In this document: piece by piece, positions 1,146 to 52,409 of the stretch | Layout of the letters: every line of letters starts with the position of its first letter | Position numbering within the stretch: position 1 is the first letter of the stretch | From: a virus | IMG/VR virus record: IMGVR_UViG_3300036399_001951 | Location: 1 to 64,000 of that record | Length of the DNA: 64,000 bases | Strand: one strand, 5' to 3' | Made by a program: the position numbers and the translations under genes | The notes under the pieces: generated by a model | Databases searched by the model: none | Seen by the model: only the letters and a program-made list of their open reading frames with translations | Told to the model about the DNA's origin: nothing

Positions 1146-4106
1146 ATGGCTGAAAGAACGATCAATTTAAATAATTACAAGTCCAGCGGAGTATACATCG
1201 TTGAGATTGATCAAAGCGAGAACGTAGCCCTTCCGTTAACTACAGGAAGACTTATTGTTGGATCAAGTAAAATCGGTCCATTTAATACTGTTGTATTAAT
1301 TAATGACTTGAGAACATTAAGAGCTGTCTTTGGTGACATTGATCCTAAATTAGAAAAGAATGGAAGCTACTTTCATCGATCAATTGAAACTGCCCTTAGA
1401 GAAGGTCCAGTTTTTGCATTAAACGTTTTACCTATTGACGATGAGGAAGATCCACTATTAAATAAGGATGCTGTGTTTTTTACTACATTTAATACCGAGG
1501 CATCTTCAAATAATTCAGATTTGAATCCTATTAAAAATCCTATTATTGACTTCTTTAATAAAAGAAGACTTTGGTTTGCAAGTTCAGATCAATTAAACCG
1601 AACTAAAAACTTGGCCTTAGGTGATGACTTTGTTACTAATCCAGGTGGATTTGGTTTGGTTTCAATTGAATCTAATAAAATCTTATCGTTTGTTAACACT
1701 GGCAAAACTAATGTTACAGTTTGGACTAGAAGAGCTTCTGTTACTGGATTTGATGTAACGGCAAAAGAATGGTATAACACCCTAGGAGGAGAGGAAAATC
1801 AATTCCCTACATACGTTCACCCAGATGATTTTATTTCAGATTATATGGTTGAGGTAATTATTGTTTCAGGAGACTTTACTAATTATTTAAAACTAGCAAA
1901 TGATCCAGTTTATGGTCAATTCTTTAATGAAGCAGGTTTAATCAACAATAGATCAAGCGATTTCTTTGCATTAAGAGAAGTAAAAGTAATTAACCGAACA
2001 ATTGGTTGTTTGATTCCTAACTTCTTAGATCAAAGTGGTAATAGTATTTCTATCGATAGATTAGTTAATAGACTATTTCCTGTAACTGGAATTGTATGCG
2101 CTCTTGATGAAAATAAATTAGATTTAATTGATTTAGATAATACTGCATTCAATGATGTTGAGGTAGATACTCATAGAATTGATTTAGTTGGACACGGCTT
2201 TGATGAACTTGCTTATGCTGCAGATGATGGTGGATATGACACTAATGGAACAACATTAGTTGCGGCTACTCCACTTATTGACTTATTGAGCTACTCTAAA
2301 CCAGCTGATGATAGTCTTATTTTTGAAATAACGAGCGGAGAAACTGAAGCTGATTTCTTAGGAGCAATCATTCCTCCCGTTCTAGGAGAGACATATATCA
2401 TAAATTCTCCGATTTTTGGAGATCCGTATATTATTGCAATGGCAGATAGCCAATTATATAAATCATATGCAAATGGATTTGTTAGAAATGGAGACATAGT
2501 TGAAGGTACACCTAACTACTATTTAAAAATCCAAGATGGTTTTGTAGTAACCGTGAGTGGGAATGATTTAAAATACATTAAATTGTTTGTATATTCAGAT
2601 AATACCCTATTAAATCAAGAAGATGTTAATAATATCGCATATAACGGTGTAACTGGAGAATATATAAAAATTAATATCGAATCTGGAGCAAACTTTAAAA
2701 GAACATTTAGTTTGACAAATACTAACTTCTTTACTTATTATTCAGTAACACAGCCTAATAAGATTAAATTAGGTATTAATACCGCAAACATTGCGAATAA
2801 GGCTATAATTGATGAATTTATTAAAGTTAATCATTACATTAAAGCAAAAGTAAACGGAGATACTAGAGAGCGTTTATTAAAGATCATCGCAGTTACAGCT
2901 AGCGAAACTTTGAGCCCATATTCATTAGAATATAATGTAACAACTATGGCTCCTAGCGTAGATGAAATTTCCGGATTAGATGTTACTGGAAATAACCTTA
3001 AAGTTTATAAAGGAATTTATAACTTTGTTGGGGAAATCAAAGGACAATATCTTAAAGGATTTAAGGTTAGAGATGAAATCTTACCTAACTCAACTGCAGC
3101 TAGACAAACTAGTATCTTAGCATACTTATTTGAGAAAACGTCTATTCCTCAAGCACTCGCTGGAAAAGAGCTTATTGATTTCAGATACGTAGTAGATACA
3201 TATGAAGGAGAACTAGGGAGTAATTCTAAGTACTATCTTGCTAAATTAGCTGCAATGCACGGGCAAGTAATGGCAATTTTAAATAGCCCATCAGTTGAAC
3301 AATTTGAAAAATCGGTTGATCCTTCGTTCATTGATTCAACTAATAAATTATTTTCAACTAGATTAGTTTCAACAGGTGGAGACTTAGATTTAAATCCTAG
3401 CTTTACATTTAAATTTGCAGAAGAAGATATTAATGGAATTCCACTTTCTTCATACGCTACCTATTATTTTCCTAATCTTATTATTAGAAATGGAAATAGG
3501 AACATATCTGTTCCACCAGCAGCATATATTTCAAATCTATATGTGAAGAAATTTAAGAACGGTACTCCTTTCTTAATTGTTGCCGGAGGTAAACGAGGAG
3601 TTTTAAACGATCCTGAATTAGTAGGACTAGAGTATGAATTAACTGACGAGGATAGAGATTATCTAGAGCCAGTTGGACATAACCTATTAGTTAAGCGTAG
3701 AGGATTTGGAACCCTATTGTTATCAAATAATACAGGATATCAAAGAGTTAATTCAGCATTGAATAACGCTCACGTAAGAGATAACTTATCTACAATTGAA
3801 AGAGACTTATCTAGAATCTTATTTAATTTCTTATTTGATTTTAATGATGAGATTACTAGACTTAGAGTTAAAACAGTTGTTGAAAACTACTTAGATGCAG
3901 TTGTTAGTGCACGTGGATTAAATACATACCAGGTTATTTTTGATAGCTCTAACAATACTAATGAGGTAATTGAAAATAATGCGGCAATCATTGATATTAT
4001 CGTTGATTTTCCAAGAGGAATTCAAAAATTCATCAACCGAATTACTATTACAAGAGTTGGAGGACAATTAAGTTCTGATTCTACTGGATTTACACCAAGT
4101 TTCTAA
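1146..4106 (+). CDS. Contractile tail sheath protein (gp18-like), 986 aa
   Basis: N-terminal SGVYIVEIDQS and GPFN motifs. C-terminal VPPAAY, AGGKRG, FDFND..TR, NNTNEVIENN motifs of Phage_sheath_1C. Confidence 0.9.
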   Translation: MAERTINLNNYKSSGVYIVEIDQSENVALPLTTGRLIVGSSKIGPFNTVVLINDLRTLRAVFGDIDPKLEKNGSYFHRSIETALREGPVFALNVLPIDDEEDPLLNKDAVFFTTFNTEASSNNSDLNPIKNPIIDFFNKRRLWFASSDQLNRTKNLALGDDFVTNPGGFGLVSIESNKILSFVNTGKTNVTVWTRRASVTGFDVTAKEWYNTLGGEENQFPTYVHPDDFISDYMVEVIIVSGDFTNYLKLANDPVYGQFFNEAGLINNRSSDFFALREVKVINRTIGCLIPNFLDQSGNSISIDRLVNRLFPVTGIVCALDENKLDLIDLDNTAFNDVEVDTHRIDLVGHGFDELAYAADDGGYDTNGTTLVAATPLIDLLSYSKPADDSLIFEITSGETEADFLGAIIPPVLGETYIINSPIFGDPYIIAMADSQLYKSYANGFVRNGDIVEGTPNYYLKIQDGFVVTVSGNDLKYIKLFVYSDNTLLNQEDVNNIAYNGVTGEYIKINIESGANFKRTFSLTNTNFFTYYSVTQPNKIKLGINTANIANKAIIDEFIKVNHYIKAKVNGDTRERLLKIIAVTASETLSPYSLEYNVTTMAPSVDEISGLDVTGNNLKVYKGIYNFVGEIKGQYLKGFKVRDEILPNSTAARQTSILAYLFEKTSIPQALAGKELIDFRYVVDTYEGELGSNSKYYLAKLAAMHGQVMAILNSPSVEQFEKSVDPSFIDSTNKLFSTRLVSTGGDLDLNPSFTFKFAEEDINGIPLSSYATYYFPNLIIRNGNRNISVPPAAYISNLYVKKFKNGTPFLIVAGGKRGVLNDPELVGLEYELTDEDRDYLEPVGHNLLVKRRGFGTLLLSNNTGYQRVNSALNNAHVRDNLSTIERDLSRILFNFLFDFNDEITRLRVKTVVENYLDAVVSARGLNTYQVIFDSSNNTNEVIENNAAIIDIIVDFPRGIQKFINRITITRVGGQLSSDSTGFTPSF

Positions 4107-4127
4107 AACTTAAGTATTGATAAAAAG

Positions 4128-4154
4128 AAAAGGAGGCAATTTGCCTCCTTTTTT
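4128..4154. terminator. Bidirectional rho-independent terminator
   Basis: AAAAGGAGGCAA-T-TTGCCTCCTTTTTT inverted repeat with T tracts on both strands, between convergent units. Confidence 0.85.
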
Positions 4155-4167
4155 GTTTTAGTATTAA

Positions 4168-4327
4168 AGATGATAAATGACTTTATCAGGAATCTCGCTC
4201 AGAGGTTATCATACTAAGATAACTTGGCTTCACACACCATTAGAGAGCTGAGTATTTCTACTTATCCTTAGTGGGTACCCTTGCGAAACGTCTCTCCACG
4301 CTTGCCATTCTACGCATTGTATCATCT
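4168..4327 (-). ncRNA. Putative ~160-nt structured ncRNA (unassigned)
   Basis: Closing helix AGATGATA/TATCATCT, extended by AATG/CATT. Internal TGGAGAG/CTCTCTA, AGTA-GAAA-TACT GNRA hairpin and GTTATC/GATAAC hairpin. GC-richer than its flanks. Confidence 0.55.
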
Positions 4328-4333
4328 CCATTG

Positions 4334-4417
4334 TACTCGAAGAGAGACTCGAACTCTCACAGCCGTCTGGCCAACAGATCTTAAGTCTGTCGTGTCTACC
4401 GATTCCACCATCCGAGC
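4334..4417 (-). tRNA. tRNA-Leu (anticodon TAA), class II, CCA not encoded
   Basis: GCTCGGA TGGTGGAATCGGTAGACAC G ACAGA CTTAAGA TCTGT, long variable arm, GAGAG TTCGAGT CTCTC TTCGAGT A. Confidence 0.95.
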
Positions 4418-4491
4418 ATTAATACACATCTGTTGGCGACCGGGTATCCCAATCCTTTTATTTCCAACAAATGCTAATGATTTAATAAAAA

Positions 4492-4915
4492 GTGAAAGAA
4501 GGTATAGAAGGATTACAGAATACCTTCAACTTGGTCGTTTGCTATATTTTTCCCACTGCATCCTAAAATTTCTGTCGAAACTTAACTCAGTCTAAGCTTG
4601 CGCTCGCTAAGACCATTGTTAAAACAGCTACCTTATTTAGGACCACCTTATCTCACAAACGAGAAAATTATTCGGTCATAAAACGGGACTTATTTTTTTA
4701 CCCGTAAGTGGTTTACAAATCTGTCTATTTTTGTATATCCAAGAACACAAATTCTAGAAGCTATTCTAGTTCAGCTCTTCTATTTAGAAGAGGACCCCGA
4801 CTAAAGGGCGTATCTGCGGCCCATCGGCCTAACTTGTTCCATTATGGGCTTTGCTGACCCATTATTCTGGTATATACCAAACGTTTTTTACCCGTCGGTT
4901 TAAAACGCCTTTCAC
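4492..4915 (-). ncRNA. Putative large (~424 nt) ornate structured ncRNA (unassigned)
   Basis: Terminal helix GTGAAAG/CTTTCAC, second closing helix GGTATA/TATACC, at least 6 internal hairpins including a GCAA tetraloop. No credible ORF. Promoter-like motif upstream, tRNA downstream. Confidence 0.65.
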
Positions 4916-4920
4916 AATTA

Positions 4921-4971
4921 TCAAAGAACTTTCTTATTTTTATATATACAGCAAAATTATTAAAAAGTTTT
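4921..4971 (-). promoter_or_regulatory. Putative promoter (AAAAC-N18-TATATA) followed by a boxA-like GTTCTTTGA
   Basis: Same architecture as other minus-strand promoters in the window. GTTCTTTGA resembles rrn antitermination boxA. Confidence 0.45.
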
Positions 4972-4985
4972 TAAAAATTAACTTT

Positions 4986-5219
4986 TTATTTACTTTCGCT
5001 ATGGTTTAATGGATAATTTCTAAGTAAACACTTTAATTTATCCTGGGCTTCTGTTAATTTTGCCAATGCATCTTCGGCATTTTTATAAAAATCATCAGTG
5101 CTATGATCCCCAATTCCAGCCGGATGATCGCTTAATAATTTTAGAGTAAGCTTAGCTTTAGAAACATCTGCGTCACATGATGATTTTAACATGTCAAATA
5201 ATTCAGAATTCATTTTCAT
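4986..5219 (-). CDS. Hypothetical phage protein (HPAGIGDH motif)
   Basis: 77-aa helical ORF, co-oriented with its neighbours. Confidence 0.7.
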   Translation of the reverse strand: MKMNSELFDMLKSSCDADVSKAKLTLKLLSDHPAGIGDHSTDDFYKNAEDALAKLTEAQDKLKCLLRNYPLNHSESK

Positions 5220-5235
5220 CTTTATTTTGTTTTAT

Positions 5236-5535
5236 TTATTCAAACTCATCTAATTCTACGTCTTTAACGTCATCTAGAACTGCCATAATTTCGTTTGCCA
5301 TAATCATATAATGAAGTTCACCTTTATAAGTGAGCTCAGCTCCAGCAAACCTATTGCAAATTACTAGGTCTCCGGGTTTAACGATCATAGGATTATGTTG
5401 ACTTCCGTCTCCACAGGCAACTACTGTGCCAATATTAGGTCGCTTAACGACTTTGTCAGGCAGAAATATTCCGCCAGCTGTTTTAGTTTCTTTTTTCTGA
5501 GGTTTAATTAAAACTCTTTCATATAAAGGTTTCAT
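5236..5535 (-). CDS. groES: Co-chaperonin GroES
   Basis: MKPLYERVLI, mobile loop KTAGGIFLPD, GTVVACG, VKPGD motifs. Confidence 0.95.
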   Translation of the reverse strand: MKPLYERVLIKPQKKETKTAGGIFLPDKVVKRPNIGTVVACGDGSQHNPMIVKPGDLVICNRFAGAELTYKGELHYMIMANEIMAVLDDVKDVELDEFE

Positions 5536-6668
5536 ATTATAGAAGGATTATTTTTTATGTTAATTAATTTTTTAAAGTTGAATTTTTTAAATTCAGAGGG
5601 GTTTATCTCTTTTAATGAATCTAACACCTTTTCTGGAAAAAGAGAAGAAGATAGTCTTATTATCTTTGAATTAAATAGAAAATGCTTCCTAATTTCTGTT
5701 AATTTATCAATGTCATTTACTTTATTTAGGATACTTATTTTTTGAATAACAAAGTCTATAAATTTACTATCTGACAAATCCAATAGTTTTATTGATTCTT
5801 TTCCGTATTGATCCCTGATCTCACCTATTAATCTCTCGGACTTACTAGGAGTCATCTTATCCATTTTAGGAATATTATCTTTACCATCACCTCTAAATAT
5901 TTTATTGAATACTTCATAAACTGGGTCTATTTTATATTCAACATAGTCTTTGTTTTTTAGAGTAGTAACTATGTAATTGATCGGATTGCTAACTATATGA
6001 GAGTCGTCCAAAGAAAAGAAATTATCTACTTCATCTACAGCAGAACTTGGATTCAAACAATCTGATATACATAATTTTTTATGGCCAGAAGTTTGTTTAG
6101 GATATATTATAATCACATTATTCTTTTCAGAATGTGTTAATTGTCGAATATCACCATCTACGGTATAAATTAACGCATCAGTGTCTATTATTTCACATAG
6201 ATACGCAATTATATCATCACCTTCAGTTCCCCGAATTCTATAGTAGTTTACCCCACATAAATCTATTAATTTCTTAGATATTTCATTCTGAAAATAATCA
6301 AAGAATAGATAAATGTGATCGTCCTTTTTTCTATTTCCCTTGTATTTAAATTTCTCAGGTGCAGAATCAGTTTTAAAGTCTTCGTTTTCGAAGAAATCAT
6401 TTATATATTCTTTTCTCCAACTGGAAGAATCAAATACTAAATGCACCCGATGTATTTTACTACTAACGGGTGCAATTAGAGAATTTAAATAGTTTATGCA
6501 GAAATTTCTAAATTCTAACTTAACTTGTTCTTTTAAAATGTGTTTCCCTTCATTAAAGATGTCGTTGACATAATATTTGGCACCTACAGTTTTATCTCTA
6601 AAACATATATTTTTAGTGACGTTTATCGCAACGTTTAAATATGCATTTCCATCGATAATAAAGTCCAT
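5532..6668 (-). CDS. RNase H / 5'-3' exonuclease (T4 rnh, FEN-like)
   Basis: IIDGN, VFD..SWRK, YKGNRK, EGDDII, DGDIRQL, GDGKDNIP acidic motifs. Confidence 0.85.
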   Translation of the reverse strand: MDFIIDGNAYLNVAINVTKNICFRDKTVGAKYYVNDIFNEGKHILKEQVKLEFRNFCINYLNSLIAPVSSKIHRVHLVFDSSSWRKEYINDFFENEDFKTDSAPEKFKYKGNRKKDDHIYLFFDYFQNEISKKLIDLCGVNYYRIRGTEGDDIIAYLCEIIDTDALIYTVDGDIRQLTHSEKNNVIIIYPKQTSGHKKLCISDCLNPSSAVDEVDNFFSLDDSHIVSNPINYIVTTLKNKDYVEYKIDPVYEVFNKIFRGDGKDNIPKMDKMTPSKSERLIGEIRDQYGKESIKLLDLSDSKFIDFVIQKISILNKVNDIDKLTEIRKHFLFNSKIIRLSSSLFPEKVLDSLKEINPSEFKKFNFKKLINIKNNPSII

Positions 6669-18196: not shown

Positions 18197-18320
18197 CAGT
18201 CAGGACAGGATTCGAACCTGCATGATAACTTATGAGCAGTCTTATCGGGTCTTTCGAGGTTACTCACGTTATCCTTACTATTAACCTTTATTCATGCGTC
18301 TACCATTCCGCCACCTGACT
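18197..18320 (-). ncRNA. tRNA-like RNA (124 nt): intact acceptor, D and T arms but no canonical anticodon arm
   Basis: AGTCAGG/CCTGACT acceptor, TGGCGGAATGGTAGACGC D arm, GCAGG-TTCGAAT-CCTGT T arm. The ~74-nt central region carries a long hairpin. Confidence 0.75.

Positions 18321-45113: not shown

Positions 45114-47555
<2,442 letters not shown>

Positions 47556-48635: not shown

Positions 48636-52408
<3,773 letters not shown>

Positions 52409-52409
<1 letters not shown>

Follow-up and report, generated by a model that had tools for sequence, protein, structure and literature searches.

A lake-water phage encodes an abundant structured RNA composed of two interlocked manA-like cores

Introduction

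The manA RNA family (RF01745 in Rfam) was described in 2010 from marine metagenomes, T4-like cyanophages and two gamma-proteobacteria, and was presented as a probable cis-regulator and possible riboswitch (PMC2864571); it has been an orphan "riboswitch candidate" ever since. Here we describe a relative of this family from a large phage of lake water. The minus strand of positions 4492-4915 in a 64,000-nucleotide stretch of DNA, hereafter the window, encodes a structured RNA of ~425 nt in which two manA-like cores are fused. The window constitutes the first 64 kb of the 136.7-kb IMG/VR virus record IMGVR_UViG_3300036399_001951, which is estimated to be ~54% complete; the window has a G+C content of ~31%.

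GOLLD and ROOL are likewise large, ornate, phage-encoded RNAs, and they are often located near tRNA genes. According to the introduction of a preprint (bioRxiv 10.64898/2026.07.01.735769) both form RNA-only multimers, and the preprint itself reports that single-core manA RNAs of <200 nt assemble in vitro into a 60-mer icosahedral cage, decamers and octamers, as seen by cryo-EM. Pentamers are described as the building blocks, with kissing loops and a contact between GNRA loop and receptor keeping them together; the core fold is conserved and the peripheral helices are variable.

A first-pass annotation, made from the letters of the window alone, had placed one large, ornate, end-closed non-coding RNA beside a tRNA gene at this position, had left it unassigned, and had proposed a divergent GOLLD/ROOL member or a new class. 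The existence of such an RNA, which that annotation had made dependent on covariation and transcription, is borne out by both, whereas the RNA is found below to belong elsewhere.

Results

Two manA-like cores form one interlocked RNA

From the 5' to the 3' end the RNA comprises the terminal helix H0, P1, a pseudoknot strand, core A, a 4-nt linker, core B, the second pseudoknot strand and the second strand of H0. RNA position p corresponds to window position 4916-p, and the elements, all on the minus strand, are as follows.

4492-4915: paired core of the RNA, 424 nt, from covariation on alignment A4 (transcript contigs reach 4933)
4909-4915 (GUGAAAG, 5' strand) with 4492-4498 (CUUUCAC): terminal helix H0, 7 bp
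4882-4907: P1 hairpin with a GACG-containing loop, aligned to manA P1 and the sole P1 of the molecule
4873-4878 (GGUAUA, just 5' of core A) with 4501-4506 (UAUACC, just 3' of core B): pseudoknot
4683-4872: manA-like core A, with CCAGAAUAA, P2A 4844-4862, UAAUGG, P3A 4747-4837, P4A 4706-4746 and P5A 4683-4705
4507-4682: manA-like core B, with UGACCGAAUAA 4668-4678, P2B 4651-4664, UAAGGUG 4644-4650 and P3B 4561-4642
4528-4560 and 4507-4527: 3' part of core B, the P4B region and P5B, respectively
4739-4743 (CUUGG, core A) with 4530-4534 (CCAAG, core B): swapped P4 outer helix 1
4707-4711 (CCACU, core A) with 4553-4557 (AGUGG, core B): swapped P4 outer helix 2
4655-4660: P2B loop GUUUGU, complementary to GCAAAC 4537-4542 (P4B region) and to the P2A loop GCAAA
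4598-4605: GAGCGCAA, loop of the long hairpin in P3B, containing the palindrome GCGC

The RNA was found in six full-length lineages and one distant seventh relative.

Lineage 1: the window itself with L002, L020 and L104
Lineage 2: L100, L105, L106, L107, L290 and L332, 72% identical to the window
Further full-length lineages: L121, L122 and L335; L172, L242 and L306; L353; L355 and L356
Distant relative: L361

The structure was written from the window sequence and RNAalifold and was evaluated on A4, a sequence-only MAFFT alignment of 8 rows, 7 of them distinct. Standard pairs occupied 95.8% of 793 cells, compared with 37-47% when the partners were slid by 1-3 columns, and 61 of the 114 pairs exhibited changes on both sides, compared with 9-15 when slid; no shuffle out of 500 attained any of the five measures. 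Changes on both sides were seen in 4 pairs of each of the long-range helices 53-58/432-437, 189-193/404-408 and 225-229/380-384. The folding energy gave z = -2.68 for the minus strand (matched by 1 of 100 shuffles) and z = -3.01 for the plus strand. We assign the RNA to the minus strand because G-U pairs are conserved there (columns 74/83, UG in 7/7 rows; columns 322/347, GU in 7/7 rows), RF01745 aligns to that strand, and its direction is shared by the operon and the tRNA gene.

All pairings listed in the first-pass annotation exist in the sequence and most are backed by covariation on A4. The end pairing GTGAAAG/CTTTCAC is H0, invariant in 7/7 rows and replaced at the same place in L361 by another pair, UUGAAAAU/AUUUUCAA. 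GGTATA/TATACC is the pseudoknot, which encloses both cores; all 6 of its pairs are kept in all rows, 4/6 are changed on both sides, and L361 has GGGAU/AUCCC. The hairpins ATGGG/CCCAT, CTCTTCTA/TAGAAGAG, CTAGAA/TTCTAG, TCTC/GAGA, GTCT..AGC/GCT..AGAC and GAAGG/CCTTC are all kept with compensatory changes. The coordinates given for these pairings mixed the two strands, so that the end pairing stands but GTGAAAG at 4492 of the plus strand is the complement of the RNA 3' end. A 12-nt direct repeat, ACGGGTAAAAAA, is real on the minus strand, but on A4 it occurs as a 12-mer in the window lineage only. The alternative pairing proposed between its first copy and CCCGT does not hold, since that copy stays ACGGG/ACGGA while the CCCGT strand covaries with its own 5' strand (AUGGG/CCCAU, AUAGG/CCUAU and GUGGG/CCCGC in relatives), and the suggested long-range pair CCGAC/GTCGG is absent from the other lineages on A4.

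In P1, 5/5 stem pairs are changed on both sides, the inner ACC/GGU becoming AUC/GAU. P3A is multi-branched, with 7 pairs of which 4 are changed on both sides, and has 3-4 hairpins within it; there are 2 hairpins inside P3B, and the long one shows changes on both sides in 10/15 pairs. The outer strands of P4 pair between the two cores. The helix CUUGG/CCAAG is changed on both sides in 4/5 pairs, with 97% of cells paired, and its place is taken in L361 by ACUUUUAG/CUAAAAGU; CCACU/AGUGG is also changed on both sides in 4/5 pairs, with 100% of cells paired, and appears as UCGUU/AACGA in L353, UUGUU/AACAA in L355 and CCUCU/AGAGG in L361. RNAalifold on A4 gave 216-220/262-266 and 275-281/396-402 instead of the P4 swap; the swap was retained owing to its double changes, and 276-281/396-401 is kept as a possible pseudoknot. 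An inner local hairpin in P4A is likely: ACAAA/UUUGU in the window and GAAUC/GAUUC in L121 were seen by eye and not counted, and AAGAA/UUCUU in L361 was checked. Between the P2B loop and the P4B region, the only one of the two possible loop partners that was counted, 6/6 pairs are present in 6 of the 7 distinct rows, and L172 has UUCGC/GCGGA. The P2A and P2B loops, the P4A segment ACAAA...UUUGU and the P4B segments change together in L121 and L172.

The two units are thus an interlocked pseudo-dimer and not two independent domains, because the pseudoknot spans both cores, the outer strands of P4 pair between the cores, the terminal helix closes the molecule, and the whole succession of elements is retained in L361, although the sequences differ.

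Relation to manA

The gathering score of RF01745 is 55.2 bits, and a run of Rfam over the whole window at gathering thresholds returned tRNAs only. In E-value mode, a small search, the 3' half (4499-4706, minus strand) gave an end-to-end RF01745 alignment with 41.5 bits and E 5.5e-9, and the 5' half (4678-4907, minus strand), when searched alone, gave an end-to-end alignment covering model positions 1-192 with 30.3 bits and E 2.4e-6. Both halves of the RNA that had been left unassigned therefore match manA significantly, although below the cut-off. What appeared as "P1" of the 3' half in the first Rfam alignment is actually P5 of core A.

In each of six other loci scanned the manA model matched at least one half, with 31.4-62.9 bits. 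L122 had two adjacent matches, 701-888 (47.3 bits) and 893-1062 (25.9 bits); the 5' unit of L172 scored 34.9 bits, the 3' units of L106, L353 and L355 scored 31-38 bits, and the 3' unit (core B) of L361 exceeded the cut-off with 62.9 bits. Canonical manA reached 152-197 bits in 16 of 20 IMG/VR loci chosen by a core pattern, the other 4 being without a gathering-level match. In the reverse direction, a covariance model (R1) built from the 3' unit (core B) of the tandem family recovered canonical manA at the Rfam position in 15 of these 16 loci, albeit weakly (15-22 bits, E 0.004-0.2), and found the 5' unit of L361 at 23 bits. Canonical manA lies beyond the reach of nhmmer profiles made from the RNA; covariance models alone connect the two.

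The manA signature, UGACUGAAUAA followed by the P2 hairpin and UAAGGUG, is found in core B (UGACCGAAUAA, UCUC/GAGA, UAAGGUG), where TGAC, GAATAA and TAAGGTG are invariant in all alignment rows, and core A carries a weaker form of it (CCAGAAUAA, AUGGGU/GCCCAU, UAAUGG). P3A and P3B both exhibit the multi-branch P3 of manA. The P5 hairpin with its GGUAnnCnnUAAUCC loop is present in core B as GAAGGUAUUCUGUAAUCCUUC and in core A as ACGGGUAAAAAAAUAAGUCCCGU, the latter aligned to P5. On the other hand, the mismatch marks in the RF01745 alignments reveal no pairing inside either unit for the intra-unit pseudoknot of manA (strand 5' of UGAC with strand 3' of P5), and by our own reading of the helix strands the outer strands of the local P4 hairpin fail to pair locally (3/5 pairs in the window, none in L106). 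Nor is the RNA located in the 5' untranslated region (5' UTR) of genes for mannose/fructose, nucleotides, ibpA or photosynthesis. The core signatures P1, P2, P3 and P5 are hence present, and three manA features, the score cut-off, the intra-unit pseudoknot and the local P4, are lacking.

GOLLD, ROOL and OLE are families contained in Rfam 15. The search of 3900-5200, which covered both strands, listed 29 matches at E <= 10; none of these three families was represented, nor was any large-RNA family other than manA. Since both halves match manA significantly and no GOLLD, ROOL or OLE match appeared, the RNA is neither a divergent GOLLD/ROOL member nor a new class; nor is it a plain member of manA, but a fused, domain-swapped, double-core variant of it. 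The absence of RNase P, tmRNA and group I intron signatures, noted in the first-pass annotation, agrees with our results: no covariance-model match to any of the three was obtained in the gathering or E-value runs, and ARAGORN called no tmRNA. We hold the tandem-manA identity and architecture with high confidence. A match to a described family had been named as what would remove the novelty; the manA match reduces it without removing it, and no mention of a tandem or double manA was found in the literature, the supplementary files of the 2010 paper and preprint being left aside.

Single-unit manA-like RNAs below or near the threshold were encountered at L358 4919-5103 (plus strand) and L360 2774-2958 (plus strand), 62.5 bits; L357 5463-5638 (plus strand), 45 bits; L136 4288-4437 (minus strand), 28 bits; L359 2188-2495 (plus strand), 26 bits and between tRNA genes; and L159 2113-2276 (plus strand), 28.7 bits with R1. 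The diversity of manA appears to be wider than the Rfam threshold captures, with many divergent relatives under the cut-off. L136, a phage contig, also contains a tmRNA gene (2997-3287, minus strand, 110 bits) ~1 kb from its weak manA-like match, and in L106 a sub-threshold match to freshwater-1 RNA (RF02979; 5882-5944, minus strand; 71.0 bits, cut-off 72) is located within the tRNA cluster that follows the tandem manA RNA of lineage 2.

Distribution of the double-core RNA

Homologues were collected through the cpn10 neighbour of the RNA and by exact-pattern scans of IMG/VR, metagenome and genome contigs, and all loci were filtered with nhmmer. About a dozen contigs in 7 lineages resulted, a lower bound because the pattern scans required exact words. 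The neighbour search with cpn10 and the adjacent 77-aa open reading frame (ORF) gave 97 loci, of which only L002 and L020 (window lineage) and L006 and L008 (lineage 2) carried the RNA. In the metagenome scan 110 stretches were found, and nhmmer over 352 loci confirmed 21, all from the four lineages then known, plus one weak match. The genome scan gave 4 pattern stretches, in unrelated metagenome-assembled genomes. A further pattern, CCGACGGGN{8,30}CCAGAATAA, gave 19 stretches, of which those outside the known lineages had no nhmmer match and were taken as chance. When 4150-5000 was compared by blastn with 50,697 phage records, only the tRNA-Leu part matched (96 records), and no isolate with the RNA was found.

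The RNA is abundant in lake-water transcripts

Of 23 runs listed, 6 metatranscriptomic runs contained 33-41% of the sampled words of 4150-5250, and four of them were examined for contigs. The public runs that contain the stretch carry the label lake water.

X15: contig 4539-4916, depth 133, 0 differing letters
X16: contig 4537-4823, depth 306, 0 differing letters
X17: contig 4507-4904, depth 19, 0 differing letters
X18: contig 4537-4933, depth 192, 0 differing letters

Together the contigs of the four libraries span 4507-4933. The upstream 77-aa ORF had a depth of 2.7 and 2.3 in two runs, and depth was 0 over 4150-4334, 4446-4482 and 4964-5037. In the two runs with a depth for both, the RNA is thus 49- to 133-fold deeper than the upstream ORF, a step that rules out carry-over of DNA as the explanation. 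We conclude that transcription of 4492-4915 on the minus strand gives a large lake-water phage a discrete RNA of ~425 nt, and that this RNA is very abundant.

The uncovered 4492-4506 and the contig ends at 4537-4539 were not taken as evidence of an RNA end. Positions 4537-4539 (RNA positions 377-379) coincide with the 3' edge of GCAAAC; one of the three contigs that end there carries adapter-like loose letters, and the fourth contig continues to 4507. These ends could reflect a processing site inside the RNA or an effect of assembly.

The locus and the phage

The gene order on the minus strand is 5'-3' exonuclease, cpn10, 77-aa ORF, RNA, tRNA-Leu(UAA), ~180 nt without features, and a terminator-like hairpin.

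5532-6668, minus strand: 5'-3' exonuclease gene, upstream of cpn10
5236-5535, minus strand: cpn10 gene, upstream of the 77-aa ORF
4986-5219, minus strand: 77-aa ORF (phrog_1811, function unknown), directly upstream of the RNA
4921-4929, minus strand: conserved upstream box GUUCUUUGA, 5 nt before H0 and inside the X18 RNA contig
4333-4417, minus strand: tRNA-Leu (UAA), 74 nt downstream of the RNA, called by ARAGORN and by Rfam (tRNA, 54.1 bits)
4128-4152, minus strand: terminator-like hairpin closing the minus-strand unit, shared with the convergent tail sheath gene
1146-4106, convergent: tail sheath gene, 986 aa, phrog_34521

A 73-aa homologue of the 77-aa ORF precedes the RNA in L122 and L356, and an IMPDH/GMP-reductase-like gene and cpn10 are located upstream of the RNA, not downstream. 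A sigma-70 promoter scan of the minus strand gave no candidate directly upstream of the RNA. The upstream box, as GTTCTTT[GA]A, is kept in 4 lineages, 5-10 nt before the terminal helix (alignment A2), and its RNA form GUUCUUU[GA]A resembles the -7 promoter element of Bacteroidota, TAnnTTTG.

The nearest relatives of the tail sheath protein are from uncultured megaphages, Flavobacterium phage MaF61 and Lak phages (30-34% identity), not from cyanophages, and no close isolate of the phage was found by this comparison. Between tRNA-Leu and the terminator, the ~180 nt of 4153-4332 (minus strand) contain no called feature, had a depth of 0 in the four RNA libraries, and are overlapped only by weak sub-threshold sRNA matches driven by the terminator hairpin. 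Elsewhere in the window, 18197-18320 (minus strand) is a tRNA-like gene (Rfam tRNA, 37 bits; no call by ARAGORN) with normal acceptor, D and T arms and ~65 nt in place of the anticodon arm, which may be an intron-containing or otherwise unusual tRNA. A G+C-rich island at 45114-47555 and 48933-52409 (plus strand; 43-46% compared with ~31% elsewhere) encodes two large proteins with collagen triple-helix repeats, probably fibre proteins.

Probably a stand-alone RNA rather than a switch

The same-strand feature downstream of the RNA differs among the lineages.

Window: tRNA-Leu after 74 nt
L106 type: 7-8 tRNAs after ~200 nt
L353: cut tRNA after ~84 nt
L121 and L122: DnaQ-like exonuclease gene after ~103 nt
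L361: gp32-like gene after ~344 nt
L242: none; convergent tail sheath gene
L356: none; convergent tail sheath gene

Thus one or more tRNAs follow in 3/7 lineages, a protein gene in 2/7 and nothing in 2/7. Because the downstream neighbour varies or is missing, the ends are paired, there is no terminator-like hairpin between the RNA and tRNA-Leu, and the RNA is far deeper than the adjacent ORF, we regard it as probably a stable, stand-alone RNA and not a switch in a 5' UTR. Such an RNA would be made as part of, or cut from, a transcript comprising cpn10, the 77-aa ORF, the RNA and the tRNA.

A stable RNA of this kind could also work as a monomer that binds a protein of the host or the phage, for example a host defence or RNA-processing factor, and acts on it as scaffold, decoy or sponge. 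High abundance, many conserved single-stranded stretches and, in 3 lineages, an ORF of 73-77 aa and unknown function that immediately precedes the RNA agree with this proposal. However, none of 49 searched records with a homologue of the 77-aa ORF has a manA match at E <= 0.01, so that the link between ORF and RNA is not general, and no result points to a partner protein; we consider it improbable, if the best of the alternatives.

Slightly less probable still is a tandem-aptamer riboswitch, in which the two manA-like cores would be cooperating ligand-binding domains controlling read-through into the downstream tRNA or gene. manA was indeed proposed as a riboswitch candidate in 5' UTRs (PMC2864571), the conserved unpaired UGACYGAAUAA and UAAGGUG could line a binding pocket, and a same-strand gene or tRNA is located downstream in 5/7 lineages. 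Against it stand the missing terminator, the lack of any common downstream gene, with nothing at all downstream in 2 of the 7 lineages, and the 3' tail, which is locked in the terminal helix so that no expression platform is visible. Moreover, a leader is not expected to exceed its mRNA in the way that this RNA exceeds its upstream ORF in two runs, and our literature search gave no ligand for manA.

That the RNA has no function of its own, being a spacer or processing signal of the tRNA transcript or conserved only as DNA, might be suggested by its position beside tRNA genes in 3/7 lineages, but is highly improbable given the compensatory changes in 61/114 pairs, the architecture kept in L361 though the helix sequences differ, and the occurrence of the RNA without any tRNA in the available DNA of 4 lineages.

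Possible self-assembly

In the long hairpin of P3B the 8-nt loop reads GAGCGCAA (GCGC) in 3 rows and GAGUACAA (GUAC) in 5, and both palindromes are self-complementary. No second copy of the loop palindrome exists in the window RNA nor in any row with GUAC, and this pattern fits a homotypic loop-loop contact. The first-pass comparison with multimer-forming phage RNAs was apt inasmuch as the manA family is reported to self-assemble (bioRxiv 10.64898/2026.07.01.735769), although membership in GOLLD/ROOL is not upheld. By analogy we tentatively suggest that the double-core RNA may self-assemble as well. The fused double core would then be the protomer of an RNA-only homo-oligomer, as a covalent pseudo-dimer, like single-core manA in vitro, and contacts between protomers would be made by exposed loops, for example by the P3B loop with its palindrome GCGC or GUAC.

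Discussion

The explanation that we favour overall, and consider somewhat more likely than not, is a fused double-manA, stand-alone, self-assembling RNA. Several observations weigh against one or the other part of it. Only 6 lineages and L361 are known, and some rows of the alignment are close relatives; the structure was partly derived from the same sequences, which favours the real structure over the slid controls. Both manA scores of the window fall under the Rfam cut-off, and a search with model R1 at E <= 1 misses core A of the window. The RNA contigs give neither ends, strand nor true expression level, their depths are without a DNA-run control, and 3 of the 4 stop before the predicted 3' end, at 4537-4539. 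Two lineages have a protein gene 103-344 nt downstream of the RNA, and cis-regulation is possible there. As to assembly, L106 and L290 contain a second GCGC at column 23 of A4, the switch between GCGC and GUAC took place only once in evolution, and what is known of self-assembly concerns single-core manA in vitro and comes from one preprint (bioRxiv 10.64898/2026.07.01.735769).

A bolder and rather unlikely extension of the favoured explanation is that large freshwater phages, while infecting their hosts, produce great amounts of a distinct closed particle consisting of RNA only, with the double-manA RNA as its protomer; the pseudo-dimer would replace one interface of the manA cage and two-fold contacts would be made via the P3B loop. 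If true, this would give a first indication that assemblies of the manA type occur in vivo and matter there, and the whole manA family, often beside tRNA genes, would consist of stable particle-forming RNAs and not of riboswitches.

Known by family, the RNA is new by architecture, since two manA cores are naturally fused in it and exchange helices, and it is in this respect an RNA counterpart of the gene duplication and domain swapping seen in protein oligomers. It is a ready target for cryo-EM and well suited for direct tests of self-assembly. The lake-water libraries provide environmental evidence that a manA-type RNA accumulates far above the neighbouring mRNA, and the variable or absent downstream gene, together with the tRNA clusters, argues against the 5'-UTR switch model for this branch of manA.

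Comparison with known systems

Tandem glycine aptamers consist of two homologous domains in tandem, which contact each other, fold separately and are followed by an expression platform. The lake RNA has no relation to them in sequence or structure; it exchanges helices between its units, and no platform is seen. With GOLLD and ROOL it shares size, phage origin and nearness to tRNA genes, but there is no model match and the architecture is different.

The self-assembling manA particles (bioRxiv 10.64898/2026.07.01.735769) belong to the same family, and combine loop-loop contacts on a conserved core with a variable periphery. Their constructs are <200 nt, have a single core and were studied in vitro, whereas the RNA described here has two covalently fused cores.

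Canonical manA is ~190 nt long with one core scoring 152-197 bits, whereas the lake RNA is ~425 nt long with two cores scoring 41.5 and 30.3 bits. Compared with the canonical form, the lake RNA has one shared P1, carries the pseudoknot and the outer helices of P4 between the cores, and has an added terminal helix; it is encoded by a lake-water phage with a tail sheath nearest to those of megaphages, Flavobacterium phage MaF61 and Lak phages, not of cyanophages, and it does not form part of a 5' UTR of genes for mannose, nucleotides or photosynthesis. The likeness to RF01745 comprises UGACYGAAUAA, UAAGGUG and the P5 loop GGUAnnCnnUAAUCC, P1 with its GACG loop, P2, the multi-branch P3, P5 and the pseudoknot strand directly after P5, and both are phage-borne. 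In 3 of the 16 canonical loci (L140, L154 and L158) manA is located <=150 nt (8-139 nt) from same-strand tRNA genes, a position that fits a small-RNA context within tRNA clusters more easily than a 5' UTR. With the RNA described here, manA-like RNAs are extended from marine cyanophages to large phages of lakes.

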